Of a stretch of DNA of 64,000 bases, positions 1,908 to 49,667 are shown in pieces. The notes beneath the pieces were generated by a model, which was not told the origin of the DNA, did not search any database, and saw nothing but the letters and a program-made list of their open reading frames with translations. Position 1 is the stretch's first letter. The number at the start of each line of letters is the position of its first letter. The stretch lies in the NCBI GenBank assembly GCA_963749445.1, contig CAVVMJ010000004.1:93015-157014 (forward strand). Direction: 5' to 3'. Source of the stretch: an uncultured bacterium. GTDB taxonomy: Bacteria > Patescibacteriota > Doudnabacteria > UBA920. A program made the translations under genes and the position numbers.

Positions 1908-3173
1908 ATGCTTGCCACGATACTTATTTTTATAATAATCCTTGGCGTTCTCATATTCGTCCACGAATTTGGGCATTTTGTGGTGGCCAAAAAAAGCGGG
2001 ATGAAGGTGGATGAGTTTGGGTTTGGGTTCCCGCCCAGGATGTTTGGGATTTATCAGGTTGACGGAAAATGGCGGTGGGTGTGGGGGCATAAAAATCCAT
2101 CGGCGACTCCAACCACCCCGTCCCGACTACGTCGGGACACCCCTCCTCAGCAAGGAGGGGAAGCTCCGCGGTTATCCCAGCAAAACTTCGGAGACTCTTC
2201 CCCTGATAAGGGGGAGTACCTCGCGAAGCGAGGGGAGGGGGTTGGAGATGAAACGGTTTACTCCATCAACTGGATTCCGCTAGGCGGGTTTGTGAAAATC
2301 CGCGGCGAGAATAATGAAAACGAGGATGACCCGCGTTCTTTTATCAACCGGCCGTTTTGGCCGCGGCTGGCTACTTTAGTGGCCGGCGTGTTTATGAATT
2401 TTGTGCTGGCTTGGGTGTTGATGTCAATCGGCGCGGGGATTGGCCTGCCCGCGGCCATCAGCAGTCCCAATGATTTGCCGGCCCACGCGCGTTTGGTTAA
2501 TCCCCAAATCGCCATCTTGGAGGTAATGCCCAATGCTCCGGCGGCCAAAGCCGGGCTAATGTCCGGCGATGTTATTTTGGATATAAATCACCAGCCTTTT
2601 GCCAGCGGCGAGGACATGAGTAATTATGTAAAAACGCACGCCGGCCAGAGTTTTTTATTTGACGTGGACCGCGACGGACAAAAATTATCCGTCAGCGTCC
2701 AGTCAATCGCCAATCCCGGCCCCAACCAGGGTCCAACCGGAATACAGTTAGCCAGCGTGGGCAAGCTGGTGTTCCCTTGGTATTTGGCGCCGTGGGAAGG
2801 GTTAAAGGTTTTGTATATTCAAACTTCCAGTTTCCTTTCGGGTTTGGGCCAGTTGATTACCGGTAAAGTGAGCGTTAGCAATTTAGGCGGCCCGGTAAAA
2901 ATCGCGCAAATAACCGGCCAGGTCCGGGCCATGGGTTTTGATTACCTGCTCCAGTTTGCCGCGTTTTTAAGCATTAATTTAGCGATTTTGAACATCCTGC
3001 CATTCCCGGCGCTAGACGGCGGCCGCGTGCTGTTTTTGATAATTGAAAAAGTCCGCCGCAAGCGCAATAATCAGGTCGTTGAACAATGGGTCAACACCAT
3101 CGGCTTCGCGCTTTTGATTTTGCTGATGGTCTTTGTTACGGCGCATGATGTTTTCAATATTTTTCACAAGTAA
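1908..3173 (+). CDS. rseP: RseP-like site-2 protease (M50 zinc metalloprotease with PDZ) carrying an in-frame palindromic repeat insertion
   Basis: HEFGHFVVAKK HExxH motif at N-term TM helix, PDZ-like segment (ILEVMPNAPAAKAGLMSGDVILDIN), C-terminal LDGG motif; residues ~TPTTPSRLRRDTPPQQGGEAPRL..SPDKGEYLAKRGEGVGD encoded by repeat element at 2109..2245. Confidence 0.85.
   Translation: MLATILIFIIILGVLIFVHEFGHFVVAKKSGMKVDEFGFGFPPRMFGIYQVDGKWRWVWGHKNPSATPTTPSRLRRDTPPQQGGEAPRLSQQNFGDSSPDKGEYLAKRGEGVGDETVYSINWIPLGGFVKIRGENNENEDDPRSFINRPFWPRLATLVAGVFMNFVLAWVLMSIGAGIGLPAAISSPNDLPAHARLVNPQIAILEVMPNAPAAKAGLMSGDVILDINHQPFASGEDMSNYVKTHAGQSFLFDVDRDGQKLSVSVQSIANPGPNQGPTGIQLASVGKLVFPWYLAPWEGLKVLYIQTSSFLSGLGQLITGKVSVSNLGGPVKIAQITGQVRAMGFDYLLQFAAFLSINLAILNILPFPALDGGRVLFLIIEKVRRKRNNQVVEQWVNTIGFALLILLMVFVTAHDVFNIFHK
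2109..2245 (+). repeat. RPE-like modular palindromic element, in-frame copy inside rseP
   Basis: ccaaccaccccgtc..gtcgggacacccctcctcagcaaggaggggaagctccgcg..ctcttcccctgataagggggagtacctcgcgaagcgaggggagggggttgg; nested hairpins and terminal inverted repeat ccaaccaccc/gggggttgg; highly similar to 28275..28407. Confidence 0.85.
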
Positions 3174-3185: not shown

Positions 3186-3802
3186 CCATCCCGACCGACG
3201 AGTGCAGCCGACCCGTTCGGCAATACTCAGGGTCGCCCTGAGCGAAGTCGAATGGGCGAGGAGTGGAGGGATCTGTTAAAATATATGCACTACTATGTAT
3301 ATATTATGTCCAGCTTAAGCGGAGTCTTATATATCGGATTTACTTCGGATTTAAGGAAAAGGGTATTTGAACATAAGAATGATATCGTTGAAGGATTTAC
3401 CAAGAAGTATAGGTGCCACAAACTAGTGTATTACGAGGCTGGTGAAAGTTTTGAAGGAGTGCTGGAACGTGAAAAGCAATTAAAGAAGTGGAGACGTGAT
3501 AAAAAAATTTGGCTGATCGAGAAAATTAATCCCACTTGGAAAGATTTAACCCCTGAGCTGGGAGTATAAAAATAATAAATAACAGATCCCTCCACTCCCC
3601 CTCGACTCGTTCCGATAAAGTCCGGATCTCACTCGGGGTCGGTCGGGATGGAAAGCCCCGTATTCCATTCCGAGCGAGCGGCAACAATAAGCAAATCGCG
3701 AGCCGAGGAATCTGTCAGACAAGATTACTTTATCAATTAAATTAATAGATCCCTCCACTCCGGCTGGCTTGGTATTGCGATGACAGCCGTCGGTCGGAAT
3801 GG
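3186..3802 (+). mobile_element. GIY-YIG nuclease cassette bounded by nested inverted repeats
   Basis: Perfect 18-bp IR GGAGTGGAGGGATCTGTT (3260-3277) / AACAGATCCCTCCACTCC (3581-3598) flank the ORF; outer IR ccatcccgaccgac (3186-3200) / gtcggtcgggatgg (3638-3651); extra partial copies at 3746-3761 and 3788-3802. Confidence 0.6.
3285..3569 (+). CDS. small GIY-YIG family nuclease (ORF track start 3252; likely start MHYYVYIM at 3285)
   Basis: YYVYIMSSLSGVLYIGFTSDLRKRVFEHKN...KLVYYE...REKQLKKW = GIY-YIG motif block. Confidence 0.75.
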   Translation: MHYYVYIMSSLSGVLYIGFTSDLRKRVFEHKNDIVEGFTKKYRCHKLVYYEAGESFEGVLEREKQLKKWRRDKKIWLIEKINPTWKDLTPELGV

Positions 3803-5135: not shown

Positions 5136-5300
5136 AAGTGTCATCCCGGAATTTTCAGTTTCGGTATAATCAAGCCTGAAAATATCCGGGATCCAGTATC
5201 GGGACTTGACACGATAATTTCTTGTTCTGGATACCGGATATTTTTGACTTACTGATGTTATCCCCAAAGTCAAAAATTCCGGTATGACAAGAGAAAAGGC
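5136..5300. repeat. two tandem copies of the CCGGAATTTTT...AAAAATATCCGGGATCCAG hairpin-repeat family
   Basis: gtgtcatcccggaattttcag..ctgaaaatatccgggatccag and ccggatatttttgac..gtcaaaaattccggtatgacaag; related copies at 1846-1900, 15466-15532, 29286-29360, 50648-50815. Confidence 0.7.
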
Positions 5301-5330
5301 GCATGGACAGTCTGTAACGACAAAATAAAT

Positions 5331-6383
5331 ATGTTCAGAAAATTTTATCAGCGGTTTTCCAAAGACATTGCCATAGATCTCGGCACGGCCAATACCCTGG
5401 TTTACGTCAAGGGCAAGGGGATTGTGATTAACGAGCCGAGCGTGGTGGCGGTGAACCAGCGCACTAAACAAATTTTGGCTATCGGCTCGGAGGCGCGCAA
5501 AATGGTTGGGCGTACGCCGCCGCACATTGTAGCCACCCGGCCGCTGGTGGACGGCGTCATCAGCGATTTTGAAGTTACGGAAAGCATGCTGCGCTATTTT
5601 ATAGACAAAGTCCACGCGCAGACTTACACTTTTTTGCGGCGGCCGCGCGTGGTCATTGGCATCCCGAGCGGCGTGACCGAGGTGGAAAAGCGCGCCGTGG
5701 TGGACGCGGCCTTAAACGCCGGCGCCAGCGAGGCTTATTTGATAGAAGAGCCCATGGCCGCGGCCATCGGCGCCAGGCTGCCGGTGCAGGAAGCCATGGG
5801 CTGCATGATTGTGGACATCGGCGGCGGCACGGCGGAAATCGCGGTGATTTCCCTGGGCGGCATTGTGGTGTCCAAATCTTTGCGCATCGCCGGCGACGAA
5901 ATGGATCAGAACATCGTCCAGTACGCGCGGGAAAATTTTAACCTGCTTTTGGGCGAGCGCACAGCCGAACAGGTCAAAATCAACATCGGCAGCGCTTACG
6001 AGTTGAGCGAGCCGCTGTATACGCAAATGCGCGGCAGGGATCTGGTGTCCGGCTTGCCCAAGGAAGTGACCATTTCCGACACCCAGGTGCGGGAAGCCAT
6101 CATGCCCAGTCTGCGCACCATTGTCAATAACATCAAAAATGTCATAGAAGAAATTCCGCCCGAACTGATTTCGGACATTTTGGATAAAGGAATAATTTTG
6201 GCCGGCGGCGGCGCGTTGCTGAAGGGTTTGGACAAACTGGTGGGCGAAACCACCAAGATGCCGATTGTGGTGGCCGAAGATCCGCTGACCTGCGTGGTGC
6301 GCGGCGCGGGCATTGTGGTGGAAGATTTGGAAATCCTGCGGGACGTGCTGCTGCCGACGGATCTTGGGAAGATACTCAGGTAA
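5331..6383 (+). CDS. mreB: rod-shape determining protein MreB
   Basis: IAIDLGTANTLVYVKGKGIVINEPSVVAV...; actin-fold motifs; followed by mreC/mreD/mrdA. Confidence 0.95.
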   Translation: MFRKFYQRFSKDIAIDLGTANTLVYVKGKGIVINEPSVVAVNQRTKQILAIGSEARKMVGRTPPHIVATRPLVDGVISDFEVTESMLRYFIDKVHAQTYTFLRRPRVVIGIPSGVTEVEKRAVVDAALNAGASEAYLIEEPMAAAIGARLPVQEAMGCMIVDIGGGTAEIAVISLGGIVVSKSLRIAGDEMDQNIVQYARENFNLLLGERTAEQVKINIGSAYELSEPLYTQMRGRDLVSGLPKEVTISDTQVREAIMPSLRTIVNNIKNVIEEIPPELISDILDKGIILAGGGALLKGLDKLVGETTKMPIVVAEDPLTCVVRGAGIVVEDLEILRDVLLPTDLGKILR

Positions 6384-6384
6384 C

Positions 6385-6520
6385 CCAAAATGGTAATAAG
6401 TTGTAGGTTTTGGCAACCGGTACGGTTATAAATAAGTAGGGAGTAAGGCTCTGCCTAACTACAATTGACCTACAACCATACTGGCCGCCACACCTTACAA
6501 CTTATTACTATCAATCAACA
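6385..6520. repeat. large hairpin repeat, GGCGGCCAGTAC family (copy a)
   Basis: long imperfect inverted repeat around ...tactggccgccacacc...; related copies at 8010-8218, 16540-16655, 31222-31345, 36487-36605, each immediately downstream of a gene. Confidence 0.65.
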
Positions 6521-7320
6521 TGAGATTCATATACACCAAAACTTTTTTAGCCTTTGCCGCCTGTCTGGTGTTGGTGGCATTTTTGGTTTTTTTGCAGGCC
6601 AAAGGCTGGCTTTATCCCATAAGCGAGGCATTTTTGCAGGCGCCCCGGCCGGTTTACGCCATAACCCGCGGTATAGCCCGTCCGGTAAAAGGTTTTTTTG
6701 CCTCTATTTATTCCTTGCGCCAAATTGCCAAAGACAATTCGCAGCTGAAGCAGCAGGTGATGGCGCTGTCCCAGCAGGTGGCCGATTACGATCAACAAAA
6801 ACGGGAAAATGAGGCGCTGCGGCAGGAGCTGGGTTTCGTGAGTTCAGCCAAGTTTTCTTTGGTTCCCTGCGCCGTTTTGTCGGCTAACCCCGCCGGCCTG
6901 GCCAATACGCTGGTGCTCGGTTGCGGTTCGAATCAGGGCGTTATGGCCGGCCAGGCGGTGCTGTCGCAAGGGTATTTGGTGGCAAAAATCGTTTACGCCG
7001 ACAGGGGCGGCAGCACGGCGCTGCTCGCCACAGACTCCAAATTTACGGCGGATGCCCAGTTGAGCAAGACCGGCACGGCTGGGCTGGTTACGGGCTCTTA
7101 CGGCTCGGGGCTGCTGCTTGACCGCCTGTCGCAAAGCGATCAGGCTGAGAAAGGCTGGATGGTCGTGACCGCGGGCATCAACAATTTGGTGCCCAAGGGG
7201 ATTTTAATCGGCCAGGTGGACCAAATAGTTTCTTCCGCCAACGATTTGTTTAAAAAAGCCACCGTCTTGACGCCGATTGATTTTAACAATCTGAACTTTG
7301 TTTTCGTAGCAAAACCCTAG
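6520..7320 (+). CDS. mreC: rod-shape determining protein MreC
   Basis: N-terminal TM, coiled coil (LKQQVMALSQQVADYDQQKRENEALRQELGF), beta-rich C-term; operon context. Confidence 0.85.
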   Translation: MRFIYTKTFLAFAACLVLVAFLVFLQAKGWLYPISEAFLQAPRPVYAITRGIARPVKGFFASIYSLRQIAKDNSQLKQQVMALSQQVADYDQQKRENEALRQELGFVSSAKFSLVPCAVLSANPAGLANTLVLGCGSNQGVMAGQAVLSQGYLVAKIVYADRGGSTALLATDSKFTADAQLSKTGTAGLVTGSYGSGLLLDRLSQSDQAEKGWMVVTAGINNLVPKGILIGQVDQIVSSANDLFKKATVLTPIDFNNLNFVFVAKP

Positions 7321-7340
7321 ACCGCTGACCCGTTTGGCAA

Positions 7341-7372
7341 TGCTCAGGGTCACCTTGAGCAAAGCCGAAAGG
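7341..7372. repeat. CTCAGGGTCACCCTGAG palindrome-family copy
   Basis: gctcagggtcaccttgagc; other copies 3220-3250, 37521-37556, 49551-49600; often followed by 'gaatggacgctgaa' and short CAGCGACCAATCAGCG-type direct repeats. Confidence 0.6.
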
Positions 7373-7474
7373 TGAATGGACGCTGAATTTAACACCAACG
7401 CTGATTGGACGCTGAAGCGTCAAGTTCAGCTCAGCGACCAATCAGCGTACCCATCAGCGACCAATCAGCGGTAT

Positions 7475-8008
7475 ATGAAATACTTTGTATACATCTTGCT
7501 ATTAATCGTGCTCTGCGGCCTTCAGGCCGGGCTGGCGCAGGTTGTAAATATCCGCGGCCAAACCCCGCAGCTTTTGTTTTTATTGGTGTTTGTCTGGTCT
7601 TTGGACAAAAACGACCGGGATTATTTGTTTCTGACTTTGGGCGCCGGGCTGTTTTTGGATTTTTATTCCGGCGTCCCGGTGGGCAGCATAACCTTGCCGC
7701 TTTTGGCAATCAGCCTGCTGCTGCATCAACTGGTGGAAAATTTTTTGGCTTTGGAGCTCAGCCCGAAATTGTTGGCGGCTTTGCTGCTGCCGGCCCAGGC
7801 CGTGTTTTATGTACTGTATTTTTTTTGTTTGCGGTGGCTTCCCGGCTCGCGCCTGCCGGTTTTAATTCCCGGGCTGCGGTTTTTGGCCGGTAACTTTGTC
7901 ATCGCGTTCGCCTATAATTTGCTGTTTTTGTATCCCGTATTTTTATTGGTTGAATTTGTGAGGTCATTCATTCATCGCCATTTTGAGCGCGAATACAAAA
8001 TCCAGTAA
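7475..8008 (+). CDS. mreD: rod-shape determining protein MreD (likely start MKYFVYILL; ORF track start 7376 runs through repeats)
   Basis: polytopic hydrophobic protein immediately after mreC, before PBP2. Confidence 0.7.
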   Translation: MKYFVYILLLIVLCGLQAGLAQVVNIRGQTPQLLFLLVFVWSLDKNDRDYLFLTLGAGLFLDFYSGVPVGSITLPLLAISLLLHQLVENFLALELSPKLLAALLLPAQAVFYVLYFFCLRWLPGSRLPVLIPGLRFLAGNFVIAFAYNLLFLYPVFLLVEFVRSFIHRHFEREYKIQ

Positions 8009-8009
8009 A

Positions 8010-8218
8010 TCCTATTAATGGTAGCAAGGTATAGGGTGTGGCGGCCAGTACAGAAATAAGTAGCAAGGTATAAGGTGTGGCGTCCGGTGTGGTTGTAAGG
8101 AATAGGTTTTAGGTAACATATACCTTAAAACCTACTACTGCACCGGGCGCCAAAACTAATACCCTATTACCATTCCCCGTACCGGCCGCCATAACTTATA
8201 CCCTATTACATATTCTTC
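8010..8218. repeat. large hairpin repeat, GGCGGCCAGTAC family (copy b, duplicated arms)
   Basis: ggtgtggcggccagtacag...gtaccggccgccataactta. Confidence 0.65.
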
Positions 8219-8219
8219 A

Positions 8220-10166
8220 ATGCGTGATCCCTTCAAAGTTTACACTTCCTTAAGTAATCAAAAAAACCGGCGGCCGTTGGATTGGGACGAGTCGGCGGCG
8301 GATACCCAGTCCGGCGTGGATGACGTTTACGACAGCGACCGTCGCCCGCCTACCCTGCGCGCCCTGGCGGTTTTTGCCGCCCTGGCGTTTGTTTGCCTGG
8401 GGATGCGGATTTTTTATTTGCAGATTGTCCGCGGCCACGAGTTTCGGCTGTTGTCGGAAAACAACCGGATCCGAAGCCAAGTTGTGTTGGCCCCCCGCGG
8501 CAAAATTTTGGACAGAAGCGGACAGGTCTTGGCCCAAAACACGGCCAGCTTTAATTTGGTGGCCATCGCGTTTGATTTGCCTAAAATCGGGTTAAGCCAG
8601 GAAGTTACCGCCTTGGCTGCCGAATTCGGCTTGGACGCCGGCGACGTGCTGGATAAAATCAGTGCGGTGCCGAAAAATTCCATTGAGCCCATAGTTATCA
8701 AACAAAACGTCAGCCGGGACCAGAGCCTGTTGTTTGAAACCGAGTCCAGCCGGTTTTTGGGATTTTCCGTGGAAGAAATTCCGGTGCGGGATTACGCGGA
8801 TGCGCCGGCTTTTTCCCACGTTTTGGGTTATACCGGACTGCTTAGTCCGGGCGATTTGGTCGGGTTGGACCAAAATGCCTACGCCAGCGAAGACTATATA
8901 GGCAAGCTCGGCATTGAACAGCAGTATGAAAAATATCTCCACGGGCAAAACGGCCAGGATTTGGTGGAGGTTGACGCCACGGGCAAGCTGCTGGATGTCT
9001 TGGGGGAGAACCCGCCCGTTCCCGGCAATACGCTAATTTTGAATATTGACAAGGATTTGCAGGCCCAACTTTACGCGGCGCTGCAGGCCAATGTTGGTTC
9101 GCAGCGCGGCGCTGCTGTGGCCATTAATCCTAAAAACGGGCAGGTGCTGGCTTTGGTGAGCAGTCCGGGTTTTAACAATGATTTATTTGCTCCCGGCATC
9201 AGCCAGGCCGATTATCAGGCATTATTGAATGATAAAAATCAGCCGTTATTCAACCGCGCCATAGCCGGCACTTATCCGCCCGGGTCAACTTCCAAACCCA
9301 TGACCGCCACTGCCGGACTGCAGGAAGGGGTCATTACCGACAGTACTGTAATTTACGATAACGGCGTCATCACCGTGCCCAATCAGTTCGGCGGCGTGGC
9401 ATACGATTTCCACGGGTGGAAGCCCGGCGGCCTCGGGCCAATGACAGTGCGCAGCGCGATTGCCATGAGTTCCGACATCTTTTTTTATGAAGTAGCCGGC
9501 GGCAGCCCCAACGGCTCCCTGGCGGGTTTGGGCGCGGACCGCTTGGCCGAGTACTTCCGCAAATTCGGTTTGGGCAAACCGTTGGGCATTGACATCCAAG
9601 GCGAAAAGGGCGGGCTGGTGCCGGATCCGGCCTGGAAAATGAGTTATTACAATAACGACCCGCTCTTGGGCAAATGGTATTTGGGCGATACCTACCATAT
9701 GGGCATCGGCCAGGGCGATGTTTTGGTCACGCCGCTGCAGGCCGCGGAATGGACCGCCATTGTGGCCAACGGCGGCACGGGCTACGTGCCGGAAATCGCG
9801 CAAAAAGTGATGGATGAAAACGGCAAAGTTTTGTGGCAAAACCAGCCTAAAGTTTTGGTGTCCAATATTGCTTCGGCGGCCAATATGAAAATCGTACAGG
9901 AAGGCATGCGCCAGACCGTAACCGCGGGCACGGCCAAAGCGTTGATGTCTTTGCCGATAAGTTCAGCCGGCAAAACCGGCACTTCGCAGTTTGACGATTC
10001 CAATCCGGCCAAGACCCACGCCTGGTTTACGGTTTACGCGCCATACGAAGACCCGCAAATCGTGATTACGGTTTTGGTGGAGGCCGGCGGCGAAGGCAAC
10101 GCCGCGGCCGAACCCATCGTCAAAAACGCCTTGCAGTGGTGGGCGACAAATAGGTATAAGAAATAA
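8220..10166 (+). CDS. mrdA: penicillin-binding protein 2 (elongasome transpeptidase)
   Basis: STSKP (SxxK), SSD, KTGT motifs; N-terminal TM; follows mreBCD. Confidence 0.9.
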   Translation: MRDPFKVYTSLSNQKNRRPLDWDESAADTQSGVDDVYDSDRRPPTLRALAVFAALAFVCLGMRIFYLQIVRGHEFRLLSENNRIRSQVVLAPRGKILDRSGQVLAQNTASFNLVAIAFDLPKIGLSQEVTALAAEFGLDAGDVLDKISAVPKNSIEPIVIKQNVSRDQSLLFETESSRFLGFSVEEIPVRDYADAPAFSHVLGYTGLLSPGDLVGLDQNAYASEDYIGKLGIEQQYEKYLHGQNGQDLVEVDATGKLLDVLGENPPVPGNTLILNIDKDLQAQLYAALQANVGSQRGAAVAINPKNGQVLALVSSPGFNNDLFAPGISQADYQALLNDKNQPLFNRAIAGTYPPGSTSKPMTATAGLQEGVITDSTVIYDNGVITVPNQFGGVAYDFHGWKPGGLGPMTVRSAIAMSSDIFFYEVAGGSPNGSLAGLGADRLAEYFRKFGLGKPLGIDIQGEKGGLVPDPAWKMSYYNNDPLLGKWYLGDTYHMGIGQGDVLVTPLQAAEWTAIVANGGTGYVPEIAQKVMDENGKVLWQNQPKVLVSNIASAANMKIVQEGMRQTVTAGTAKALMSLPISSAGKTGTSQFDDSNPAKTHAWFTVYAPYEDPQIVITVLVEAGGEGNAAAEPIVKNALQWWATNRYKK

Positions 10167-15535: not shown

Positions 15536-15853
15536 ATGACAAAAAAAATTCTAGGCTGGATCATCTTTCTCGCAATATATATAATGGGGTACTATTATAT
15601 ATATTCACAAGGTTTAAGTGGGCCGAATTGCAAAGGGGCAGCTATCTGTTTTGATGTCTTTACGCCCGCGGCCAGTTTAATTGTCAAAGAGCTGTATTTG
15701 TTTTTGTGGCTTATATTATTCCCGATTTTTGCTCTCTCGTGGGTTTCGGTTAAAAGGAAATTCGGAGATAGAAAATGGACAAAAATTCTTGATTGGATAA
15801 TGATTGTAATCGGAATTTTGTTTATAGTTTATACAGCGTGGATGCATTTTTAA
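15536..15853 (+). CDS. small hypothetical membrane protein (start MTKKILGWIIFL)
   Basis: three hydrophobic helices; AT-rich; ORF track start 15431 lies in repeat DNA. Confidence 0.3.
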   Translation: MTKKILGWIIFLAIYIMGYYYIYSQGLSGPNCKGAAICFDVFTPAASLIVKELYLFLWLILFPIFALSWVSVKRKFGDRKWTKILDWIMIVIGILFIVYTAWMHF

Positions 15854-16006
15854 TTATTTTATCCCTAATTCATGACTCGCGCTTCTCGAATTATGAATAA
15901 AGAATAAAATTAAGTATATACCAAAGTATATACTTCGGTATATACTTTTAGAAAGGAATGGTTGGTTCCGATATTTATCGGGATCTCGATCGCACTAAAA
16001 AGTTTT

Positions 16007-16083
16007 GTGAAATTGCGAGTGCAGCCGAAGCAATCCCCTTAAATAATGAGATTGCTTCGTCGGATGCACTCCTCGCAATTTCC
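16007..16083. repeat. GAAATTGCGAG hairpin-repeat family copy
   Basis: gtgaaattgcgagtgcagccgaagcaatcccc..gattgcttcgtcggatgcactcctcgcaatttcc. Confidence 0.7.
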
Positions 16084-16112
16084 AGAGCAGCGGTCTACCA
16101 TCATAAAAATAT

Positions 16113-16538
16113 ATGGCTAAGAAAGTTAAGGTTCAGCTAAAATTACAGTTACCGGCCGGAAAGGCCACGCCGGCGCCGCCGGTGGGCACGGCTTTGGGCC
16201 CGCACGGCATTAATTTGGGCGCGTTTGTTAAGGATTTTAACGACAAGACCGCGGCAATGGGGGATACTATCGTGCCTATAGTTATGACGATCTACGAAGA
16301 TCGCAGTTTTTCGTTTATCTTAAAAACCCCGCCGGCTTCCAATTTGATTATGAAGGCCATCGGCCTGGCAAAAGGGTCCGCGAATCCATTAACGACAAAG
16401 GTCGGCAAGATCACCGCCAAGCAAGTGCGGGAGATTGCGGAAAAGAAAATGCCGGATCTAAACGCCAACGATATGGCCGCGGCGGAAAAAATTATCCGCG
16501 GCACCGCTAGGTCAATGGGGGTGGAAGTTATTGATTAG
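16113..16538 (+). CDS. rplK: 50S ribosomal protein L11
   Basis: [43 protein letters not shown]... Confidence 0.95.
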
Positions 16539-16539
16539 T

Positions 16540-16655
16540 AGTAGGTTATAAGGTATAGCGGCCAGTACAGTAATAAGGTATGGGTTTTAAGTGGCCTTAT
16601 TACCAATGCCTTACAACTAAACCGGCCGCCATAACCTATAACCATTAACCTAAAA
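16540..16655. repeat. large hairpin repeat, GGCGGCCAGTAC family (copy c)
   Basis: ttataaggtatagcggccagtac...aaccggccgccataacctataa. Confidence 0.7.
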
Positions 16656-16658
16656 TTT

Positions 16659-17426
16659 ATGGACATCCTTTGGTTAGTCGTCGTCATCTTCGTCTTCTTT
16701 ATCCTGCCGGCGTTCCGCATTATCCAGCAGTACCAAAAAGGCGTGGTGTTTAGGTTTGGAAAAATTGTGGGGCTGCGCGGCCCGGGGCTGACTATGGTCA
16801 TACCGTACATTGACAAAGTCAGGAAAGTGGATTTGCGCACCATTACTCTGCCCATACCGGCGCAGCAAATTATCACCAAGGACAACGTTTCCCTGAACGT
16901 CTCGGCCGTGGCTTATTACCAGGTCACGGACGCGGTTAAGAGCATTGTGGCCATAGAAAATGTTATGTCGGCCATTAACCAAATCGCGCAAACCACAATG
17001 CGCAACATTGTCGGCAAGTTCCAGCTGGATGAAATTTTGAGCGAGCGCGACACAATTAACCAGGAAATCCGCAGCGTGCTGGACGAACGCACTGAGCCGT
17101 GGGGTGTAGTGGTCTCTGTTGTGGAAATTAAAGACATTGAACTGCCGGAAAATATGCAGCGCGCCATGGCCAAACAGGCCGAAGCCGAACGCGAAAAGCG
17201 CGCCAAGATAATCGCGGCCGAAGGCGAATTTTTATCGGTCCAAAAATTGGCCGACGCCGCCGACGTCATTTCGGCGCACCCGATTGCACTGCAGCTGCGC
17301 AACCTCCAGACGATGGCTGAAATATCCGTAGAAAAAAATTCCACCATCATCTTCCCCGCGCAGTTTATGGGCACGCTTTCGGATATTAAAAAATTCATAG
17401 CGGACGAAAGCGCAAAAACGATTTAG
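16659..17426 (+). CDS. SPFH/band-7 (stomatin/QmcA-like) membrane protein
   Basis: N-terminal TM then IIQQYQKGVVFRFGKIVGLRGPGLTMVIPYIDKV...; C-terminal coiled coil; inserted between rplK and rplA. Confidence 0.8.
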   Translation: MDILWLVVVIFVFFILPAFRIIQQYQKGVVFRFGKIVGLRGPGLTMVIPYIDKVRKVDLRTITLPIPAQQIITKDNVSLNVSAVAYYQVTDAVKSIVAIENVMSAINQIAQTTMRNIVGKFQLDEILSERDTINQEIRSVLDERTEPWGVVVSVVEIKDIELPENMQRAMAKQAEAEREKRAKIIAAEGEFLSVQKLADAADVISAHPIALQLRNLQTMAEISVEKNSTIIFPAQFMGTLSDIKKFIADESAKTI

Positions 17427-17433
17427 CTGAAGC

Positions 17434-17531
17434 TTGATGGGCATCTTCGTGTTTCTACGACCGCTTACGATGGTTATCAGTTAACGATAAATTGAAGTTG
17501 GTGGTTGTTTTGGCAAGAAGATGCCCATCAA
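17434..17531. mobile_element. MITE-like 99-bp element, copy 1 (TIR TTGATGGGCATCTTCGTG)
   Basis: ttgatgggcatcttcgtg...cttgccaa motifs...aagatgcccatcaa; intergenic between SPFH gene and rplA leader. Confidence 0.85.
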
Positions 17532-17664
17532 CATAAAGTGTTAAATTATTTTAATTAATTTGTGGGACCTGTTTTAAGTGTAGCGCGCCGATTCATCGGC
17601 TGCAGCCCAATAAATTGGGCACACTACATAGCACGGGGCTTGCACCACGAAAGGAAAGTTTACG

Positions 17665-18345
17665 ATGAAAATCGCAAAAAGGGTCAAAGCCAACAATGAG
17701 TTGGTGGACAAGGAAAAGCTATACACGGCCGAAGAAGCCATTGAGCTGGCCAAAAAAACCGCGAATACCAAGTTTGTCGGGTCAATGGAAGTTCATGTCC
17801 GTTTGATGATCGATGCCAAAAAAACCGACCAGTCCATCCGCGGCATGGCAAACTTGCCGCACGGCACGGGCAAGAGCAAAAAAGTGGCGGCGTTTGTATC
17901 GGAAGCCAAGGAAAAGGAAGCCAAGGATGCCGGCGCCACTATAGTCGGGGGTGAGGAGCTAATCAAAAAAATCAAGGAATCGGAAAAGACGGACTTTGAT
18001 ATTGCCGTAGCAGAACCCTCTATAATGCCAAAATTGGCCCAAATCGCCAAGATTTTAGGACCCCGCGGCCTTATGCCCAACCCTAAAACCGGCACTGTCT
18101 CAGCCGATATTGGCAAGGTTATCCGCGAAATCGCGGGCGGTAAGGTGGATTTTAAGAACGATGACAGCGGCAATATCCACCAAATCATCGGCAAGAGCAA
18201 TTTTGACTCGGCCAAGCTTTTGGAGAATTTCCAGGCGTTCATCAAGGCCGTGCAATCGGCCAAGCCCGCGGCGGTTAAAGGGCAGTATATTGCTTCCGTG
18301 TCGCTAAATGCCACGATGGGACCGGGGATAAAAATAAAGATTTAA
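17665..18345 (+). CDS. rplA: 50S ribosomal protein L1
   Basis: MKIAKRVKANNELVDKEKLYTAEEAIELAKK...HGTGKSKKVAAF... Confidence 0.95.
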   Translation: MKIAKRVKANNELVDKEKLYTAEEAIELAKKTANTKFVGSMEVHVRLMIDAKKTDQSIRGMANLPHGTGKSKKVAAFVSEAKEKEAKDAGATIVGGEELIKKIKESEKTDFDIAVAEPSIMPKLAQIAKILGPRGLMPNPKTGTVSADIGKVIREIAGGKVDFKNDDSGNIHQIIGKSNFDSAKLLENFQAFIKAVQSAKPAAVKGQYIASVSLNATMGPGIKIKI

Positions 18346-19510: not shown

Positions 19511-19546
19511 ACAAAATCAAAAACCCCGGGCCGCGAGGCCCGGGGT
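19511..19546 (-). terminator. rho-independent terminator (minus strand)
   Basis: ccccgggcctcgcggcccgggg stem followed on minus strand by tttttgatttt. Confidence 0.6.
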
Positions 19547-19742
19547 TTGGAGTTTGAATCAACTTATATCAAAACTCTTCCCATGCCAAGCGGCGCCGGA
19601 GTAATAATAATGATTATGCTGTTGGAAGAATGTATTCTGCGCATTTGTGGTATTATAGCAGGGCAAAAATTTTTGTCAAATGAAGAAGCGGGCCAATGCT
19701 TCTTCTCCGTTGAAGCCTGGCCCGCCGTCGCTTTCCCTCCGG

Positions 19743-20803: not shown

Positions 20804-20839
20804 TGCCGTTGATTAGTCACTGACGGGTCTGAAAATTTG

Positions 20840-20938
20840 TTGATGGGCATCTTCGTGGTTCCATAAACGCTAACTGATGATTATCGGCTAACTATAAATA
20901 ACGGCCGAAGATTGTTTTGGCAAGGAGATGCCCATCAA
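20840..20938. mobile_element. MITE-like 99-bp element, copy 2
   Basis: ttgatgggcatcttcgtggttccataaacg...ggcaaggagatgcccatcaa. Confidence 0.85.
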
Positions 20939-20970
20939 TCTTAAAACGTACGTCCTTCGTAAATATTTGG

Positions 20971-21928: not shown

Positions 21929-21961
21929 GGTTGATGGTTAATTTTTAGGTTGTGATTTGAG

Positions 21962-22060
21962 TTGATGGGCACCTTCGCTGTTCCACAATCGCTGATTGAT
22001 TGTTGTCGGATAGTGTAGGATTGAGATCGAAGATTGTGTTGGCAAGAAGGTGCCCATCAA
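21962..22060. mobile_element. MITE-like 99-bp element, copy 3 (slightly diverged TIRs)
   Basis: ttgatgggcaccttcgctgttccacaatcg...ggcaagaaggtgcccatcaa. Confidence 0.8.
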
Positions 22061-23972: not shown

Positions 23973-24109
23973 GCGGAGCCTCTCCTCCTATTTATAGGAG
24001 GAGTACCCTGCGTCAGCAGGGGGAGGTGGTATTAATACTTGCCGATTAGTACCACCTCGTCCCGCTTCGCGGGACACCCCTCCTATGCAAGGAGGGGAAT
24101 GCTCCGCGG
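23973..24109. repeat. RPE-like modular palindromic element, intergenic copy (modules in swapped order)
   Basis: gcggagcctctcctcctatttataggaggagtac...gtcccgcttcgcgggacacccctcctatgcaaggaggggaatgctccgcgg. Confidence 0.8.
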
Positions 24110-24136
24110 TTATTCTTAATAAAAAAGTACGGTCTT

Positions 24137-27525: not shown

Positions 27526-27963
27526 ATGTATAAACAGACCGGAAGTAAGCGTTACCTTGTAATGCTTTGGGTAGGTAAGCATGCTAATCATCGTTTTGAG
27601 GAGATGGGCAGAGCGCTCTGCGTTGCTCCGGAAGCGCTTGTGTCGCTTCTTCTCGAAAATATGGTGCGCAGGCTTAAAAAACAACCTGACATTCTGCCAT
27701 GGGTGTCAAAGTTGTTTTTAGAGATTGGAGAACCTCCGGTTCATCCGATCCACGCCGACCTGAAGCATGAGGTTTATTTTACCCTGATAGGGCATGCTCA
27801 TGACCGCCGGCTGGCAGTCAGTGATCTCGCCAGCAGACTCTTGGCGGTAGGGCTGCCGTTTTGGGATTACCAGCCGGCCATTGGTTTGACCGGCAGGGCT
27901 CAGCAGGAGGAATTGAAGCGCGGGATCAGAATCGATCTTGCGCTTGAGTTTGCCCAGCTTTGA
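27526..27963 (+). CDS. hypothetical protein (GC-richer segment)
   Basis: ORF only; no recognisable motif. Confidence 0.25.
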   Translation: MYKQTGSKRYLVMLWVGKHANHRFEEMGRALCVAPEALVSLLLENMVRRLKKQPDILPWVSKLFLEIGEPPVHPIHADLKHEVYFTLIGHAHDRRLAVSDLASRLLAVGLPFWDYQPAIGLTGRAQQEELKRGIRIDLALEFAQL

Positions 27964-28021
27964 GTGCAGAGGTTCGCGTAAGTTTGCCGCGGCCTCTTTT
28001 TTTTGTCATAATACCTATGAA

Positions 28022-29254
28022 ATGAACGAACTCATCAAGCGGCTGGAAAATCTCAAATCCGAAATCTCAAATCTGAAATCCCATTTGGATTTGCCCCAAA
28101 AGGAGCAGAGGATCTTGGAATTGGAAGACAAGATGCAGGTTCCAAATTTTTGGAATGATAATGAAAACGCCCAAAGAATATCAAAGGATTATAACCAGTT
28201 AAAGCTGTTTGTTGATTTTTGGAAAGATTTGGAAAAGGATATCCAGGAAACACTGGATTTGGTTAAAGACACTCCAACCACCCCGTCTGCTTTGCAGACA
28301 CCCCTCCTTGAAAAGGAGGGGAATGCTCCGCATGTATCCCCGAACAAACGCGGAGCCTCTCCCCCTGACAAGGGGGAGTACTCCGCGAAGCGGGGGGAGG
28401 GGGTTGGAGATATAAAAATATCCGATGCGGATTATCTTAGGCAACATACGGAACAGCTGGAGGAACAATACCGCAAAAACCGTTTTGTTGCGCTGCTTTC
28501 CAAAAAATACGACGACCACAACGCAATTTTTTCTCTGCACAGCGGCGCCGGGGGGCTTGACGCCCAGGATTGGGCGGAAATGCTCCTGCGGATGTTTTTA
28601 CGCTATTGTGAACGCCGGGGATTTATTACAGAAATTTTAGAATCAAACCGCGGAGCGGAAGGCGGCATTAAATCGGCTGTTGTGGAAGTTCACGGGCCGT
28701 ATGCTTACGGCTTGCTAAAAAGCGAGGCCGGCGTTCATCGGCTTGTCCGATTGTCGCCGTTTAATCCCGCGCACACCCGCGAAACCTCTTTCGCGCTTTT
28801 GGAAGTTTTGCCGCTTTTGGAAGATGTAGAAAAAATTGACATCGACCCCAAAGATTTAAAAATAGAAGCCAATACCGCCTCTGGCCACGGCGGGCAATCG
28901 GTCAATACCACTTATTCCGCCATCCGGATTACGCATATTCCCACCGGCCTTAAAGTCAGCATCCAAAACGAGCGCTCCCAGCACCAAAACCGCGAAATCG
29001 CCATGAAAATTTTGATGGCTAAGTTGAAAACTTTGGAAGAGGAAAAATTGCAACAGGAAAAACTGGAAATTCGTGGGGAATTTAAATCGGCCGAATGGGG
29101 AAACCAAATTCGCTCCTACGTTATCCATCCCTACAAACTGGTCAAAGACCACCGTACCGGTTTTGAAACCTCAGACCCGGATAGCGTTCTAAACGGTGAA
29201 CTGGACGAGTTTGTGGAAAGATATTTGGAAAAAACCGCGGTGACCGCTGAATAG
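28022..29254 (+). CDS. prfB: peptide chain release factor 2 (single uninterrupted ORF) with in-frame palindromic repeat insertion
   Basis: GGQ (SGHGGQSVNTT), SPF motif (RLSPF) = RF2; start MNELIKRLENL; residues TPTTPSALQTPLLEKEGNAPHVSPNKRGASPPDKGEYSAKRGEGVGD encoded by repeat 28275..28407. Confidence 0.9.
   Translation: MNELIKRLENLKSEISNLKSHLDLPQKEQRILELEDKMQVPNFWNDNENAQRISKDYNQLKLFVDFWKDLEKDIQETLDLVKDTPTTPSALQTPLLEKEGNAPHVSPNKRGASPPDKGEYSAKRGEGVGDIKISDADYLRQHTEQLEEQYRKNRFVALLSKKYDDHNAIFSLHSGAGGLDAQDWAEMLLRMFLRYCERRGFITEILESNRGAEGGIKSAVVEVHGPYAYGLLKSEAGVHRLVRLSPFNPAHTRETSFALLEVLPLLEDVEKIDIDPKDLKIEANTASGHGGQSVNTTYSAIRITHIPTGLKVSIQNERSQHQNREIAMKILMAKLKTLEEEKLQQEKLEIRGEFKSAEWGNQIRSYVIHPYKLVKDHRTGFETSDPDSVLNGELDEFVERYLEKTAVTAE
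28275..28407 (+). repeat. RPE-like modular palindromic element, in-frame copy inside prfB
   Basis: ccaaccaccccgtc..gacacccctccttgaaaaggaggggaatgctccgc..gcggagcctctccccctgacaagggggagtactccgcgaagcggggggagggggttgg. Confidence 0.85.
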
Positions 29255-29469
29255 ACGCTGATATGTACGCTGATCTGTCGCTGAAACCCAATGTGTCCAT
29301 CCCGGAATTTTTTGCGCTGATGATTATCATGGGTCGCAAAAAATATTCGGGATCCAGGCACACGTTTCTTTCCCTTTTGCCAATTTTTTGGTACAATGTA
29401 CTTATAAACATCGCTTTGAAATAAATACTGACCGGCTGATAAGCGTATCAGCTGATAAGCTTGTAAGCT

Positions 29470-30302: not shown

Positions 30303-31220
30303 ATGCTGGATTCCATCTCATTTTTGCGCGTCATAAAAACCGGCTTCACCAATTTTTGGCGCAACCTGTGGCTGTCGGCGGCCGCCACCATGGTTATGAC
30401 CGTAACCCTGGTGATTTTTGCCATTATGTTTTTGATGTTCGGCCTCACCAGCTACTCCATCAAGACCATCCAGAATACCGTGGACATCAGCGTTTACTTT
30501 AAAGTCGGTTTGGATGAAGGCCAGATTATGAAAATCAAAGGTGATTTGCAAAACGATTCGCGTATCAAAGACGTCGTTTACACTTCCCAGCAACAGGCGT
30601 TTGACCAGTTCAAGCAGCGCCACGCCGGCGATCCTTTAATTCAGGAGTCGCTCAACGAGCTCACGGAAAATCCTCTGCCCGCGACTTTGAACATCAAAAC
30701 TTATAATCTTTCCGACTATCCGGCCGTGTCGCAGGAATTGCAGGGTTCGGATTATAAAAATTTTATTGACAAAGTGAATTTTGAGGACAACCGTGCGGTC
30801 ATTGACCGTTTGGACAAAATTTTGCGCTTTATTACCACATTCGGCGTGGGACTGGTCGCGGTGTTTTCGCTGATCGCGATTTTGGTAATTTACAATACCA
30901 TCACCCTGACCATTTACAACCGCAAGGAAGAAGTGGAGATTATGCGGCTGGTGGGAGCGACTAACTGGTATATCCGCGGGCCGTTTTTGGTGGAAAGCTT
31001 GCTTTACGCCATCGGTTCCACCATTTTGACCGGCCTGGTATTTGCCCCGGTATTTAGCCAGGTTTTGCCGCGGATTGCCAATTACGTTAACCCGCAGCTC
31101 AACGTCCTGCATTCCAATTTTTTCAATTTTTGGTATTTGGAGCTTTTACTTTTGGTGATTTCCTTGTTGTTGGCCGTGATTTCCACCATGCTGGCAATCC
31201 GGAAGTATCTTAAAATATAG
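30303..31220 (+). CDS. ftsX: cell-division permease-like protein FtsX
   Basis: 4 TM helices, large periplasmic loop; follows ftsE. Confidence 0.85.
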   Translation: MLDSISFLRVIKTGFTNFWRNLWLSAAATMVMTVTLVIFAIMFLMFGLTSYSIKTIQNTVDISVYFKVGLDEGQIMKIKGDLQNDSRIKDVVYTSQQQAFDQFKQRHAGDPLIQESLNELTENPLPATLNIKTYNLSDYPAVSQELQGSDYKNFIDKVNFEDNRAVIDRLDKILRFITTFGVGLVAVFSLIAILVIYNTITLTIYNRKEEVEIMRLVGATNWYIRGPFLVESLLYAIGSTILTGLVFAPVFSQVLPRIANYVNPQLNVLHSNFFNFWYLELLLLVISLLLAVISTMLAIRKYLKI

Positions 31221-31221: not shown

Positions 31222-31345
31222 TGTATAGTTGTAAGGTATAAGGCGTGGCGGCCGGTACGGTTATTGGGATATGGTCTTGGGTGACTTATGCCCTATTACT
31301 TATTACTACACTGGCCGCTATTCCTTATAACCTATGACTTTCAGG
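31222..31345. repeat. large hairpin repeat, GGCGGCCAGTAC family (copy d)
   Basis: ggcgtggcggccggtacgg...cactggccgctattcc. Confidence 0.65.
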
Positions 31346-31528
31346 GGAATTTGACAAACTTATAGCATCGGGTATACTAACAAAGAGCCCAAATAGCGAC
31401 TCTCGCGAACCGGGGCTTTTTTTGTTAGTAGTAATCCCAAATAAACAAATCAACACAAATATACAAATACTGGCAACCCGCAGCAATTTGTATATTTGTT
31501 TATATTTGTATATTTGCGAACACTACAT

Positions 31529-35425: not shown

Positions 35426-35434
35426 TTCAACCAG

Positions 35435-35533
35435 TTGATGGGCATCTTCTTGCCAACACAATCCTCGACCGTTGTTTGTCATTATTCGATGATTATCAGT
35501 TGGCGATTGTGGAACCACGAAGATGCCCATCAA
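35435..35533. mobile_element. MITE-like 99-bp element, copy 4 (opposite internal orientation)
   Basis: ttgatgggcatcttcttgccaacacaatcctcgacc...gtggaaccacgaagatgcccatcaa. Confidence 0.85.
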
Positions 35534-35669
35534 TCGAAAGTTAAAATTATGGACATTATCCAGGTAAAAAATCTTACCATCCGCCTTCGCTCCCGACTTC
35601 GCCAAGGCTTCGTCGGGTAAGAAAGCTTCGGCGGATCTCTGCCGGATTTTTAAAATTTTCCGATTTATT

Positions 35670-36485
35670 ATGACTATGAGCGATAACAATATTATTAAGG
35701 TTAGTAATCTTTCGAGGAAATTCGGGGATTTTAAGGCTGTGGATAACATTTCCTTTGAGGTCAAACAGGGTGAAATTTTCGCTTTTTTGGGGCCGAACGG
35801 AGCGGGAAAATCCACGACCATTAAAATGCTGACAACTTTGCTTAATCCGACTCGCGGCAGCATTGAGCTTAACGGTTTTAACCCCGTAAAAAACGCCAGC
35901 GCGGTGCGCAAGGCTTTTGGCATCGTCTTCCAGGACCCGAGCCTGGACGACGAGTTGACTGCCTGGGAGAACATGGAATTCCACGGCGTGCTTTACGGCG
36001 TGCCCAAAAAATTGCGCCGAGAAAGAATTGAACAACTGATGAATTTTGTGGAGCTGTGGGACCGCAAAGACAGTTTGGTCAAAGAATTTTCCGGCGGCAT
36101 GAAGCGCCGTTTGGAAATCGCCCGCGGGCTGCTCCACCATCCCAAAGTCTTGTTTTTGGACGAACCGACCATTGGGCTGGATCCGCAAACCCGGAACCAC
36201 ATGTGGAATTATTTGCTGGAGCTAAACAAATCCGAAGGCATAACGGTATTTTTTACCACCCACTATATGGAAGAGGCAAGCAAGATTGCCCAGCGGATTG
36301 CCATTATTGACCACGGCAAAATTGTGGCCACCGGCACCACGGAAGCCTTGCAGGCGCAAACCCAAACCGCTTCTTTGGAAGACGCGTTTTTAAAGCTGAC
36401 CGGCAATGTCATCCGCGACGAGGAAGCCAGCGCCACGGACCGCCTGCGCGCGCACCGGCAGTGGCGCGGCGGCGGCCGACGATAA
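35670..36485 (+). CDS. ABC transporter ATP-binding protein (ABC-2/DrrA-like)
   Basis: GPNGAGKSTT, LSGGMKRRL, LFLDEPTIGLDP. Confidence 0.9.
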   Translation: MTMSDNNIIKVSNLSRKFGDFKAVDNISFEVKQGEIFAFLGPNGAGKSTTIKMLTTLLNPTRGSIELNGFNPVKNASAVRKAFGIVFQDPSLDDELTAWENMEFHGVLYGVPKKLRRERIEQLMNFVELWDRKDSLVKEFSGGMKRRLEIARGLLHHPKVLFLDEPTIGLDPQTRNHMWNYLLELNKSEGITVFFTTHYMEEASKIAQRIAIIDHGKIVATGTTEALQAQTQTASLEDAFLKLTGNVIRDEEASATDRLRAHRQWRGGGRR

Positions 36486-36486
36486 G

Positions 36487-36605
36487 GTTTTGGTTGTAAG
36501 GTATGGCGGCCAGTATAGTAATAGGTTTTGGGTTGTAAGTAACTTATAACTTTTTACCTACAACTATACTGGCGGCCACAACTTAAAGCTTATTACTTTT
36601 TAAAA
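36487..36605. repeat. large hairpin repeat, GGCGGCCAGTAC family (copy e)
   Basis: gtatggcggccagtatagtaatagg...ctatactggcggccacaactt. Confidence 0.7.
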
Positions 36606-37354: not shown

Positions 37355-37591
37355 GGCCACCGGCCACCCTCGGAATATCGGCAAAACCGCGGAGCCTCTC
37401 TCCTTTTGAGGAGAGATGTCCCGCGCTTTGTTTAAGAATTATAATAGCCAAAGCGAGGGACAGAGAGGTTGCCTGGCTTGATTATTGCAACCTCTCCCTA
37501 GCCTCCCCTCACCACTTCGGCTTCGCTCAGGGTGACCCTGAGCCTTGCCGAAAGGGTCAAAAGGGGAGGGAGCTCCGCAGATAATCCAAAT

Positions 37592-39332: not shown

Positions 39333-39379
39333 CTTAACAAATTTGTGTTATACTAAATTAAATGGTTTGGTCTGCGGTC

Positions 39380-39478
39380 TTGATGGGCATCTTCATGGTT
39401 CCACAAACCTCAATCAATAACTATCCGGTAATGATAAATAACGGTCGAGGGTTGTATTGGCATGAAGATGCCCATCAA
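39380..39478. mobile_element. MITE-like 99-bp element, copy 5
   Basis: ttgatgggcatcttcatggttccacaaacc...ggcatgaagatgcccatcaa. Confidence 0.85.
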
Positions 39479-39499
39479 GCGAGACAGAGTTTAATCAGA

Positions 39500-39901: not shown

Positions 39902-39934
39902 GATTGAGATTATGGAGTTATATTATATTTATGT

Positions 39935-40033
39935 TTGATGGGCATTTTCGTGGTTCCACAAACCGCAATTAATAATTATTGGATGACGATAAACAACGGT
40001 CGAGGATTGGGTTGACACGAAGATGCCCATCAA
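39935..40033. mobile_element. MITE-like 99-bp element, copy 6 (abuts the 5' end of the desulfurase gene)
   Basis: ttgatgggcattttcgtggttccacaaaccg...gacacgaagatgcccatcaa. Confidence 0.85.
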
Positions 40034-42655: not shown

Positions 42656-42669
42656 TTTAGCGTGTTATG

Positions 42670-42768
42670 TTGATGGGCATCTTCGTGCCAATGCAACCCT
42701 CGACCATTGTTTATCGTCGGCCGATAATTACCGTCTGACGTTTGTGGAACCACGAAGATGCCCATCAA
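42670..42768. mobile_element. MITE-like 99-bp element, copy 7
   Basis: ttgatgggcatcttcgtgccaatgcaaccctcgacc...gtggaaccacgaagatgcccatcaa. Confidence 0.85.
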
Positions 42769-42785
42769 TCGTAAACCCTATTTAT

Positions 42786-49536: not shown

Positions 49537-49667
49537 ACGCTGACCCATTCGACGATGCTCAGGGTCACCCCGAGTATCGTCGAGGGAAGACGGGTACGCT
49601 GAATGGACGCTGAAAAGCGCGATTCAGCGACAAATCAGCGTAGTAATCAGCGACAAATCAGCGGGAT

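Follow-up and report, generated by a model that had tools for sequence, protein, structure and literature searches.

We describe a family of palindromic repeats of about 114 nt that occupies operon spacers in a 64-kb stretch of bacterial DNA (64,000 nucleotides, hereafter the window). We propose that these repeats are a non-autonomous palindromic mobile element of the MITE, REPIN or ERIC kind that has spread in one Doudnabacteria-like lineage of Patescibacteria, a reading to which we assign a probability of roughly 0.6. The family is previously undescribed, and it belongs to a known kind, the bacterial interspersed palindromic (MITE/REP-like) repeats. Homologues of MreC, of an SPFH protein and of PBP2 place the window in the Patescibacteria (CPR), near genomes labelled Candidatus Doudnabacteria, and an identical 5.3-kb contig is present in a Logan assembly. 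CPR/Patescibacteria genomes are usually called small and streamlined, and our search of the literature found no description of interspersed palindromic repeats in this group. The family sits at the tightest possible positions, including those within ribosomal-protein operons, yet it is tolerated there and at least once conserved. Its placement constitutes a natural experiment on how much structure a polycistronic mRNA can bear between coupled genes, and on whether selfish palindromes can be co-opted.

Copies of the repeat in the window

The initial annotation, made from the letters alone, had recognized a repeat at five sites, and all five indeed contain it. An HMM built from these sites recovers exactly the same sites in the 64 kb, with E values of 1e-28 to 1e-34 for full copies and E>2 for the next match. 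The two-arm core pattern occurs three times in the window against 0.00 occurrences expected by chance, and a 12-mer allowing at most two mismatches occurs 14 times against 3.7 expected. The copies and the gene strings that host them are:

6392-6509, minus strand: copy 1, in the mreB/mreC spacer, inverted relative to the family consensus (HMM E 2.8e-28)
8020-8053, plus strand: left (basal) arm of the outer copy at mreD/PBP2 (HMM E 6e-7)
8059-8172, plus strand: complete inner copy nested in the outer copy at mreD/PBP2 (HMM E 1.6e-33)
8176-8211, plus strand: right (basal) arm of the outer copy at mreD/PBP2 (HMM E 9e-6), with the PBP2 ATG at 8220
16537-16650, plus strand: copy at rplK/SPFH, located by the HMM, with the SPFH ATG at 16659
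31227-31340, plus strand: copy after ftsX (HMM E 2.6e-34), with the ftsX stop at 31218-31220
36485-36598, plus strand: copy at ABC ATPase/ABC-2 permease (HMM E 1.3e-33), with the permease ATG at 36608
5331-10166, plus strand: host operon mreB-mreC-mreD-PBP2, with a repeat in every internal spacer; that of mreC/mreD holds two other repeat families (7323-7480)
16113-18345, plus strand: host gene string rplK-SPFH-rplA, with a different palindromic family in the SPFH/rplA spacer (17433-17545)

The five sites hold six elements. The stretch 8010-8218, which had been counted as one long copy, resolves with the HMM into a full inner copy (inner match 8052-8177) and two flanking half-length matches, and thus contains two elements, nested symmetrically. 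In the outer element, the apical ~46 nt have been replaced by the inner copy. Since the derived motifs GTAGCAAGGTATA and ATACCCTATTAC are common to the inner copy and the outer arms, the two are sisters that arose by local duplication. The mreB copy is inverted with respect to the others (leave-one-out orientation score of -15.6 bits).

The elements fit closely between their genes. At copy 1, the mreB stop ends 8 nt upstream (6383) and the mreC ATG lies 10 nt downstream (6520). The first two bases of the rplK/SPFH copy are the AG of the rplK TAG stop (16536-16538), and the copy at the ABC ATPase/ABC-2 permease junction begins at the last base of the TAA stop (36483-36485). The described succession of stop codon, repeat and co-oriented gene stands, except that between the copy after ftsX and the next gene there is a further spacer of 265 nt with a promoter-like site. 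Pfam agrees with the names given to mreB, mreC, PBP2, rplK, ftsX, the ABC ATPase and the ABC-2 permease. The gene called mreD owes its name to synteny only and has no Pfam match, and the gene 3' of rplK is, according to Pfam, an SPFH/Band-7 gene and not rplA. For the studied family itself, searches of Rfam, viral contigs and phage records gave no match; at a permissive threshold, Rfam returned only sub-threshold matches to miRNA-precursor-like hairpins.

Hairpin structure and sequence conservation

Each element is a single imperfect palindrome of ~114 nt (~115) with 54 potential pairs in one register. The GC-rich core GGCGGCCRGTA / TACYGGCCGCC is set in arms that are otherwise A/T-rich, and the element contains no ORF. 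The termini AGTAATAAG...CTTATTACT are complementary and the whole element is an inverted repeat, with the end sequence AGTAATAAGTTATAAGG. Long-stem hairpins had been claimed for the family, and RNA folding confirmed them: the copies fold at -45 to -52 kcal/mol (z -4.8 to -8.2), none of 200 shuffles folds as well as the real copies, and the nested pair at mreD/PBP2 reaches -91 kcal/mol. Because the element is a palindrome, the two strands fold alike, the reverse about as well as the forward.

An alignment of 16 copies over 120 columns, almost without gaps (alignment A7), was used to examine this structure across several species. RNAalifold consensus structures computed on MAFFT alignments were weak and uninformative, and an explicit single-register structure on the gap-free alignment was used instead. 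Pairing throughout A7 obeys a single register (i+j=121). When the 54 pairs are imposed together, standard pairs occupy 73.7% of cells, compared with 28-42% when the partner is slid, and 16 pairs are invariant across the 16 copies. The ends of the element are conserved as AGT...ACT (A7 columns 4-6 and 115-117).

Covariation was not found. The 73.7% of paired cells compares with 74.8 ± 0.8% when the 3' letters are shuffled among copies, with 466 of 500 shuffles equal to or above the observed value; the covariation score of 0.127 lies under the shuffled mean of 0.142; and left arms complement their own right arm (16.5) no better than the right arms of other copies (19.4). Since pairing shows no covariation, the hairpin is real and inherited from a palindromic founder, and compensatory maintenance has no positive support; the compensatory base-pair changes that characterize a structured RNA are absent from these copies. 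Nor did a functional strand emerge. Mismatch types G·U and A·C number 85 and 55, with no consistent bias, and 11 of 17 copies fold more weakly in the sense than in the antisense direction (p=0.17). A periodicity of ~3.5/7 nt among conserved columns, apparent by eye only, was set aside as not significant (lag 7, p 0.05-0.10).

Placement of the copies and probable transcription through them

A stricter core pattern found twelve true copies, spread over the JGI metagenome loci L125-L132 (eight in all), which also bear the window's other repeat families. Contigs reached via protein homologues yielded five more copies (three in L135, one in L138 and a decayed one in L137), so that 17 copies are available beyond the window in related contigs, of which one is decayed and two are identical. 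A looser pattern, GCGGCCRGTAY..AYYGGCSGCY, was discarded; run over genome contigs, it gave 120 matches, mostly in high-GC genomes, none of which was a true copy by the HMM. The lineage sequence examined amounts to ~150 kb, and the copy counts and placement reported here apply to these sequences.

Within this ~150 kb the family is strictly intergenic. The location noted in the window, between co-oriented genes and just after a stop codon, is shared by 17 of 17 aligned copies and by the three copies at new sites in L135 and L138. The end of the upstream stop and the left anchor are 8-30 nt apart (mode 12); on the other side, the downstream start lies 19-23 nt past the right anchor in 10 of 15 cases. 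TAG occupies A7 columns 3-5 in 7 of 16 copies and is the upstream stop in at least four independent cases; of all stop codons in the window, just 21% are TAG. Ribosomal-protein operons (S10/spc/alpha junctions) contain seven of the copies. The junctions with copies are:

Ribosomal-protein junctions: L23/L2, S19/L22, L24/L5, S14/S8, ?/L36, L36/S13, S11/S4 and S21/YqeY
Other junctions: atpB/(atpE), HlyD/MFS and bactofilin/kinase

The orientation of the element matches gene direction in 14 of 17 copies by leave-one-out scores; among copies scoring >3 bits, later ones included, forward copies outnumber reverse ones by 11 to 2 (two-sided p about 0.02). ORFs take up about 85% of the window, most of whose genes point the same way as their neighbours, and the tidy placement of the family is largely the residue of purifying selection in a compact genome.

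A role as intra-operon terminators or attenuators had been suggested for the repeats. No T/U tract follows any copy, a terminator scan places nothing at the stems of the five sites, and the combination of a short GC-rich stem and a T/U tract that defines an intrinsic terminator is lacking at all five. Promoter-like sites were not found inside the elements either; a strong one at 31351-31378, just after the ftsX copy, is the sole one nearby. Essential, co-expressed genes, separated by 2-40 nt in relatives, lie directly downstream, and the junctions that disfavour termination are mreB/mreC, mreD/PBP2, L23/L2, S19/L22, L24/L5, L36/S13 and S11/S4. With no U-tract, no internal promoter and essential genes downstream, the elements must be transcribed through, and the suggested role in termination or attenuation is not supported.

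Filled and empty junctions among relatives

L122 (GCA_964474825.1) and L124 have the same gene order as the window, and the studied family is absent from 20 kb of both. The mreB/mreC junction measures 40 nt in L122 and 28 nt in L124, the mreD/PBP2 junction 6 and 2 nt, and the rplK/SPFH junction 17 and 89 nt, the latter of unrelated sequence. The mre junctions are empty in L133 and L137 too, that of mreD/PBP2 included in L137. Because the junctions of syntenic relatives are empty and only 2-40 nt long, the window copies must have inserted into operon spacers that were very short.

The set of filled spacers also differs among related species whose divergence is similar (SPFH about 80% nucleotide identity). 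L135 has copies at folD/cpd and secE/ydjM, where the window has unrelated spacer sequence, and L138 carries the studied family at mreD/PBP2 and another hairpin family at mreB/mreC. Sister copies are found as well: the near-identical L127b and L127c flank rpmJ, and L130a, L130b and L126a are about 90% alike. The placement of the repeats had been taken to speak for a function rather than for random insertions, an opposition that proves false given the empty orthologous sites and the presence/absence differences among species. Since relatives' junctions are empty and species differ in filled sites, the elements are insertions of the MITE/REPIN kind. Like MITEs, they are small, non-coding and multi-copy, have terminal inverted repeats and occur at sites that are filled or empty among relatives; like REPINs, they consist of two inverted halves that form one long hairpin of ~100 nt.

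No transposase of the IS630, IS200/IS605 or RAYT type was detected among the about 55 window ORFs scanned, and no RAYT gene is present in the window or the fetched loci. L137 contains an IS1595-family transposase gene (5190-6050), between a response-regulator gene and secE, that is absent from the window; this IS1595 was rejected as a parent element because its ends are unrelated to the repeat. A TA target-site duplication seemed convincing on inspection, but TA occupies fixed flanking columns in half or fewer of the copies (8 of 16 on the left, 3-4 of 16 on the right). Being self-complementary, TA may there be the terminus of the inverted repeat, and the empty sites of relatives are too diverged to be aligned with filled ones.

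Constraint on the rplK/SPFH copy

The copy at rplK/SPFH is shared by three contigs. Those of L131 and L135 are identical to each other, with junctions and orientation as in the window, and the window copy matches them at 105 of 120 positions (87.5%) without indels. In the same comparison, third codon positions of the flanking genes show 54-60% identity, and four-fold sites in five genes are identical at 180 of 327 (55%). The Jukes-Cantor K is 0.14 substitutions per site in the repeat against 0.69 at four-fold sites (binomial P=2e-14), so that this copy evolves about five times slower than four-fold synonymous sites. The 14 substitutions fall in family-variable columns (mean entropy 1.10 vs 0.57 elsewhere, p=4e-4), and only one of them hits an invariant column. 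About five pairs are lost and about three gained by the substitutions between orthologs. A probable third ortholog, in L137, is a decayed copy of 58% identity that has lost the GC core.

For this one orthologous pair, the sequence comparison is read most economically as purifying selection, position-specific in nature, that acts on resident copies in lineages in which the family remains alive. The main caveat to constraint is parallel insertion at the same hot-spot spacer, which is possible because different families independently reach the same spacers. The mreB/mreC spacer illustrates such independent colonization, holding the family ATTTGTATATTTGTTTA.. in L138 and the studied family in the window.

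Comparison with known palindromic repeats

Analogues that share these properties have been reviewed (PMC10969869, PMC2229807, PMC3116915, PMC8049555), and nothing that we found supports filing the family under ERIC, Correia or REPIN. The ERIC/IRU elements of Enterobacteriaceae and Vibrionaceae, imperfect palindromes of 127 bp, are similar in length, and as in the studied family the whole element is one imperfect palindrome. ERIC elements are intergenic and co-transcribed with genes, frequently directly 3' of one; they occur in both orientations with orientation-dependent effects on mRNA, their copies are conserved between species, and a transposase is not known for them (PMC10969869). The family described here is set apart by a host of an unrelated phylum and by having no match in Rfam or in the sequence collections. 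Unlike ERIC, it fills the whole stop-to-start spacer in tight operons, with the stop often lying in the stem.

The Correia elements (CREE) of Neisseria present a second analogy. These are MITE-like elements of about 100-150 nt with long inverted ends that form hairpins and are co-transcribed, and their mobilisation is visible as strain and site differences (PMC2649163). In contrast to the studied family, they are characterized by 26-bp terminal repeats around a core that is not palindromic, by a clear TA duplication and by an IHF site and end promoters; IHF or promoter motifs like those of Correia elements were not seen in the elements studied here.

REPINs, too, are ~100-nt hairpins of two inverted halves that are intergenic and locally clustered, and they form vertically inherited populations that are persistent and conserved over long times (PMC3116915, PMC8049555). 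REP sequences carry a GTAG (or CGTC) tetranucleotide tag at one end (PMC3733652), and REPINs are mobilised by RAYT transposases. Such a tag is not conserved in the studied family, where GTAG appears in the first 14 columns of A7 in 4 of 16 copies and CTAC in the last 14 columns in 0 of 16, and the arms are not themselves short palindromes. The description of the repeats as REP-like is apt if taken broadly, for interspersed palindromes that are co-transcribed with operon genes, and inapt as regards the GTAG/CTAC tag of REP. Finally, the Rickettsia palindromic elements (RPE) are comparable as palindromic repeats that proliferate in a small, host-dependent genome, but the studied family is intergenic throughout ~150 kb and has no sequence similarity to RPE. 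In-frame insertion into genes of the RPE type is displayed by a different family of the same window.

Proposed mechanism and alternative explanations

The 20 nt upstream of most ORFs in the window are A/T-rich and almost never contain a GGAGG-type Shine-Dalgarno (SD) motif, and many genes abut or overlap, which suggests that initiation in this host is SD-independent with heavy reliance on translational coupling.

The element has gone into very short operon spacers, and its surviving copies are confined to the interval from a stop codon to the following start. We propose that each copy is transcribed within the polycistronic mRNA and read through, and that the base of the RNA hairpin would bring the upstream stop and the downstream start side by side, with the stem often beginning with the three stop-codon bases and the start lying 7-11 nt past the last pair. 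A ribosome terminating at a stop in the stem base, or at most 10 nt from it, would have to melt the basal pairs, and the opening stem would free 15-25 nt ahead of the next start. Termination-reinitiation coupling, we infer, might thereby be preserved or even enforced in an SD-poor lineage; with coupling preserved, insertions would be tolerated even in ribosomal-protein operons. Liang, Rudd and Deutscher reportedly found in 2015 that, in E. coli, REP sequences near stop codons influence how the gene upstream is translated. In the studied family, a role has probably been taken on by some copies, be it in RNA processing or stability, in the control of coupling or as a protein-binding site.

It is possible, if unlikely, that the repeats are instead host-beneficial REP-like RNA elements, with RNase III/E sites or 3'-exonuclease barriers that set per-gene stability and protein ratios, and that their mobile origin is only history. 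Such a role would account for the strong constraint on the orthologous rplK/SPFH copy and for the orientation bias with respect to transcription (11 vs 2). It would also suit the operons concerned, which need their products in unequal amounts, and Correia and ERIC elements do exactly so in Neisseria and Yersinia (PMC2649163, PMC10969869). However, compensatory covariation is absent, the substitutions between orthologs break about five pairs and gain about three, and the energies of folding in sense and antisense direction do not differ consistently (11/17, p=0.17). In addition, close relatives run the same operons without the element, and one probable ortholog has decayed.

We consider it doubtful that the elements have been domesticated, serving in this SD-poor lineage as a device for translational coupling and dosage in essential operons or as the binding site of a dedicated protein, and kept by position-specific purifying selection. 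If this were true, former selfish DNA would have become part of the operon architecture of an ultra-small genome.

An improbable alternative is a DNA-level site, where a protein would recognize the conserved bases, above all the inverted pair of GGCGGCCRGTA cores, in duplex or cruciform form. Candidates would be a nucleoid protein, gyrase, a receptor for DNA uptake or the transposase of the element itself, and such recognition would explain the conservation. That conservation is indeed position-specific, symmetric on both arms and free of covariation, and BIME/REP and Correia elements are known to bind IHF, gyrase and Pol I (PMC2229807, PMC10969869). Yet no candidate protein was identified, conservation spans the whole 114 nt and not one footprint, a symmetric DNA site is not expected to show an orientation bias, and about one copy per 10 kb is a low density for an uptake sequence.

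Intrinsic terminators or attenuators inside operons are very improbable, for although the hairpins are stable and lie directly 3' of genes, and the ftsX copy with its ensuing promoter-like site could mark an operon end, the stems are A/T-rich, 54 pairs long and interrupted by mismatches, unlike terminators with their 5-15 GC-rich pairs, T-tracts are missing, the terminator scan was negative at the stems, and essential, normally coupled genes follow directly without a promoter, including at the seven copies within ribosomal-protein operons.

Other repeats and neighbouring loci

At least seven hairpin or repeat families are present in the 64 kb and occupy most of its operon spacers. By BLAST alone, repeat families make up no less than 4.2% of the window and no less than 17% of its non-ORF DNA, and the spacers of L122 and L124 are compact; for a CPR genome, that of the host is unusually rich in repeats. 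Metagenome assemblies are fragmented by such repeats, and the closest relatives lie on 1-3-kb contigs. They can also mislead gene callers, several window ORFs being extended into repeats. Families other than the one under study include:

17433-17545, 20839-20944, 21961-22060, 35434-35560, 39379-39479, 39928-40033, 42656-42775, 58026-58132 and 60021-60072: palindrome TTGATGGGCATCTTCG...CGAAGATGCCCATCAA, ~100 nt
2106-2249, 28271-28411, 46909-47022 and 24051-24113: in-ORF family GACACCCCTCCT..AGGAGGGG.., ~115-140 nt
3206-3271, 7323-7384, 37495-37559 and 49538-49583: short family GACCCGTTCGGCAATGCTCAGGGTCACCCTGAGC
7431-7480, 29243-29285 and 49623-49673: tandem-like short family TCAGCGACCAATCAGCG
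46-95 and 31419-31526 in the window, 6136-6256 in L138: A/T-rich hairpin family ATTTGTATATTTGTTTA..

The palindrome TTGATGGGCATCTTCG...CGAAGATGCCCATCAA is the most abundant, with 8-9 intergenic copies; its sequence is unrelated to that of the studied family, and it is also found in L135 and other relatives. In the window, the spacer that follows the ftsX copy contains the A/T-rich family ATTTGTATATTTGTTTA.., which in L138 fills the mreB/mreC spacer. The families GACCCGTTCGGCAATGCTCAGGGTCACCCTGAGC and TCAGCGACCAATCAGCG jointly fill the mreC/mreD spacer. The ORF at 7376-8008 (mreD) encodes 210 aa, compared with 177 aa for the MreD of relatives, so the called start probably runs into these repeats.

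The family GACACCCCTCCT..AGGAGGGG is associated with changes in coding sequence. An M50 protease gene (1908-3173) has a 46-aa in-frame insert exactly at such a repeat, which is lacking in L122 and L124, and a different insert, of 45 aa, lies nearby in L138. In a release-factor gene (27938-29254, 438 aa), the PCRF domain is stretched at another copy. These inserts look like RPE-style in-frame palindromic insertions. A GIY-YIG nuclease-domain ORF (3252-3569, 105 aa) is situated between the M50 protease gene and a prolyl/threonyl-type tRNA synthetase gene; it is directly preceded by a repeat copy (3206-3251), and relatives have other small ORFs at this location.

Two further stretches are conserved between species. 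A 181-nt non-coding segment at 19513-19693 is 90% identical to L135 8489-8669, far above neutral expectation; ARAGORN found no tRNA and Rfam no match at gathering score in it, and it may be an unannotated small RNA or leader. The ~260 nt upstream of rplK (15852-16112, compared with L135 3857-4096) are about 79% conserved, like coding sequence, which would fit a structured leader of the L11/L1 operon; Rfam reports none there. Downstream of rplK, the SPFH/Band-7 (slipin) gene at 16659-17426 lies between rplK and rplA in the window, in L122 and L124 and in L134-L137, and so splits an otherwise near-universal gene pair throughout this Patescibacteria group.
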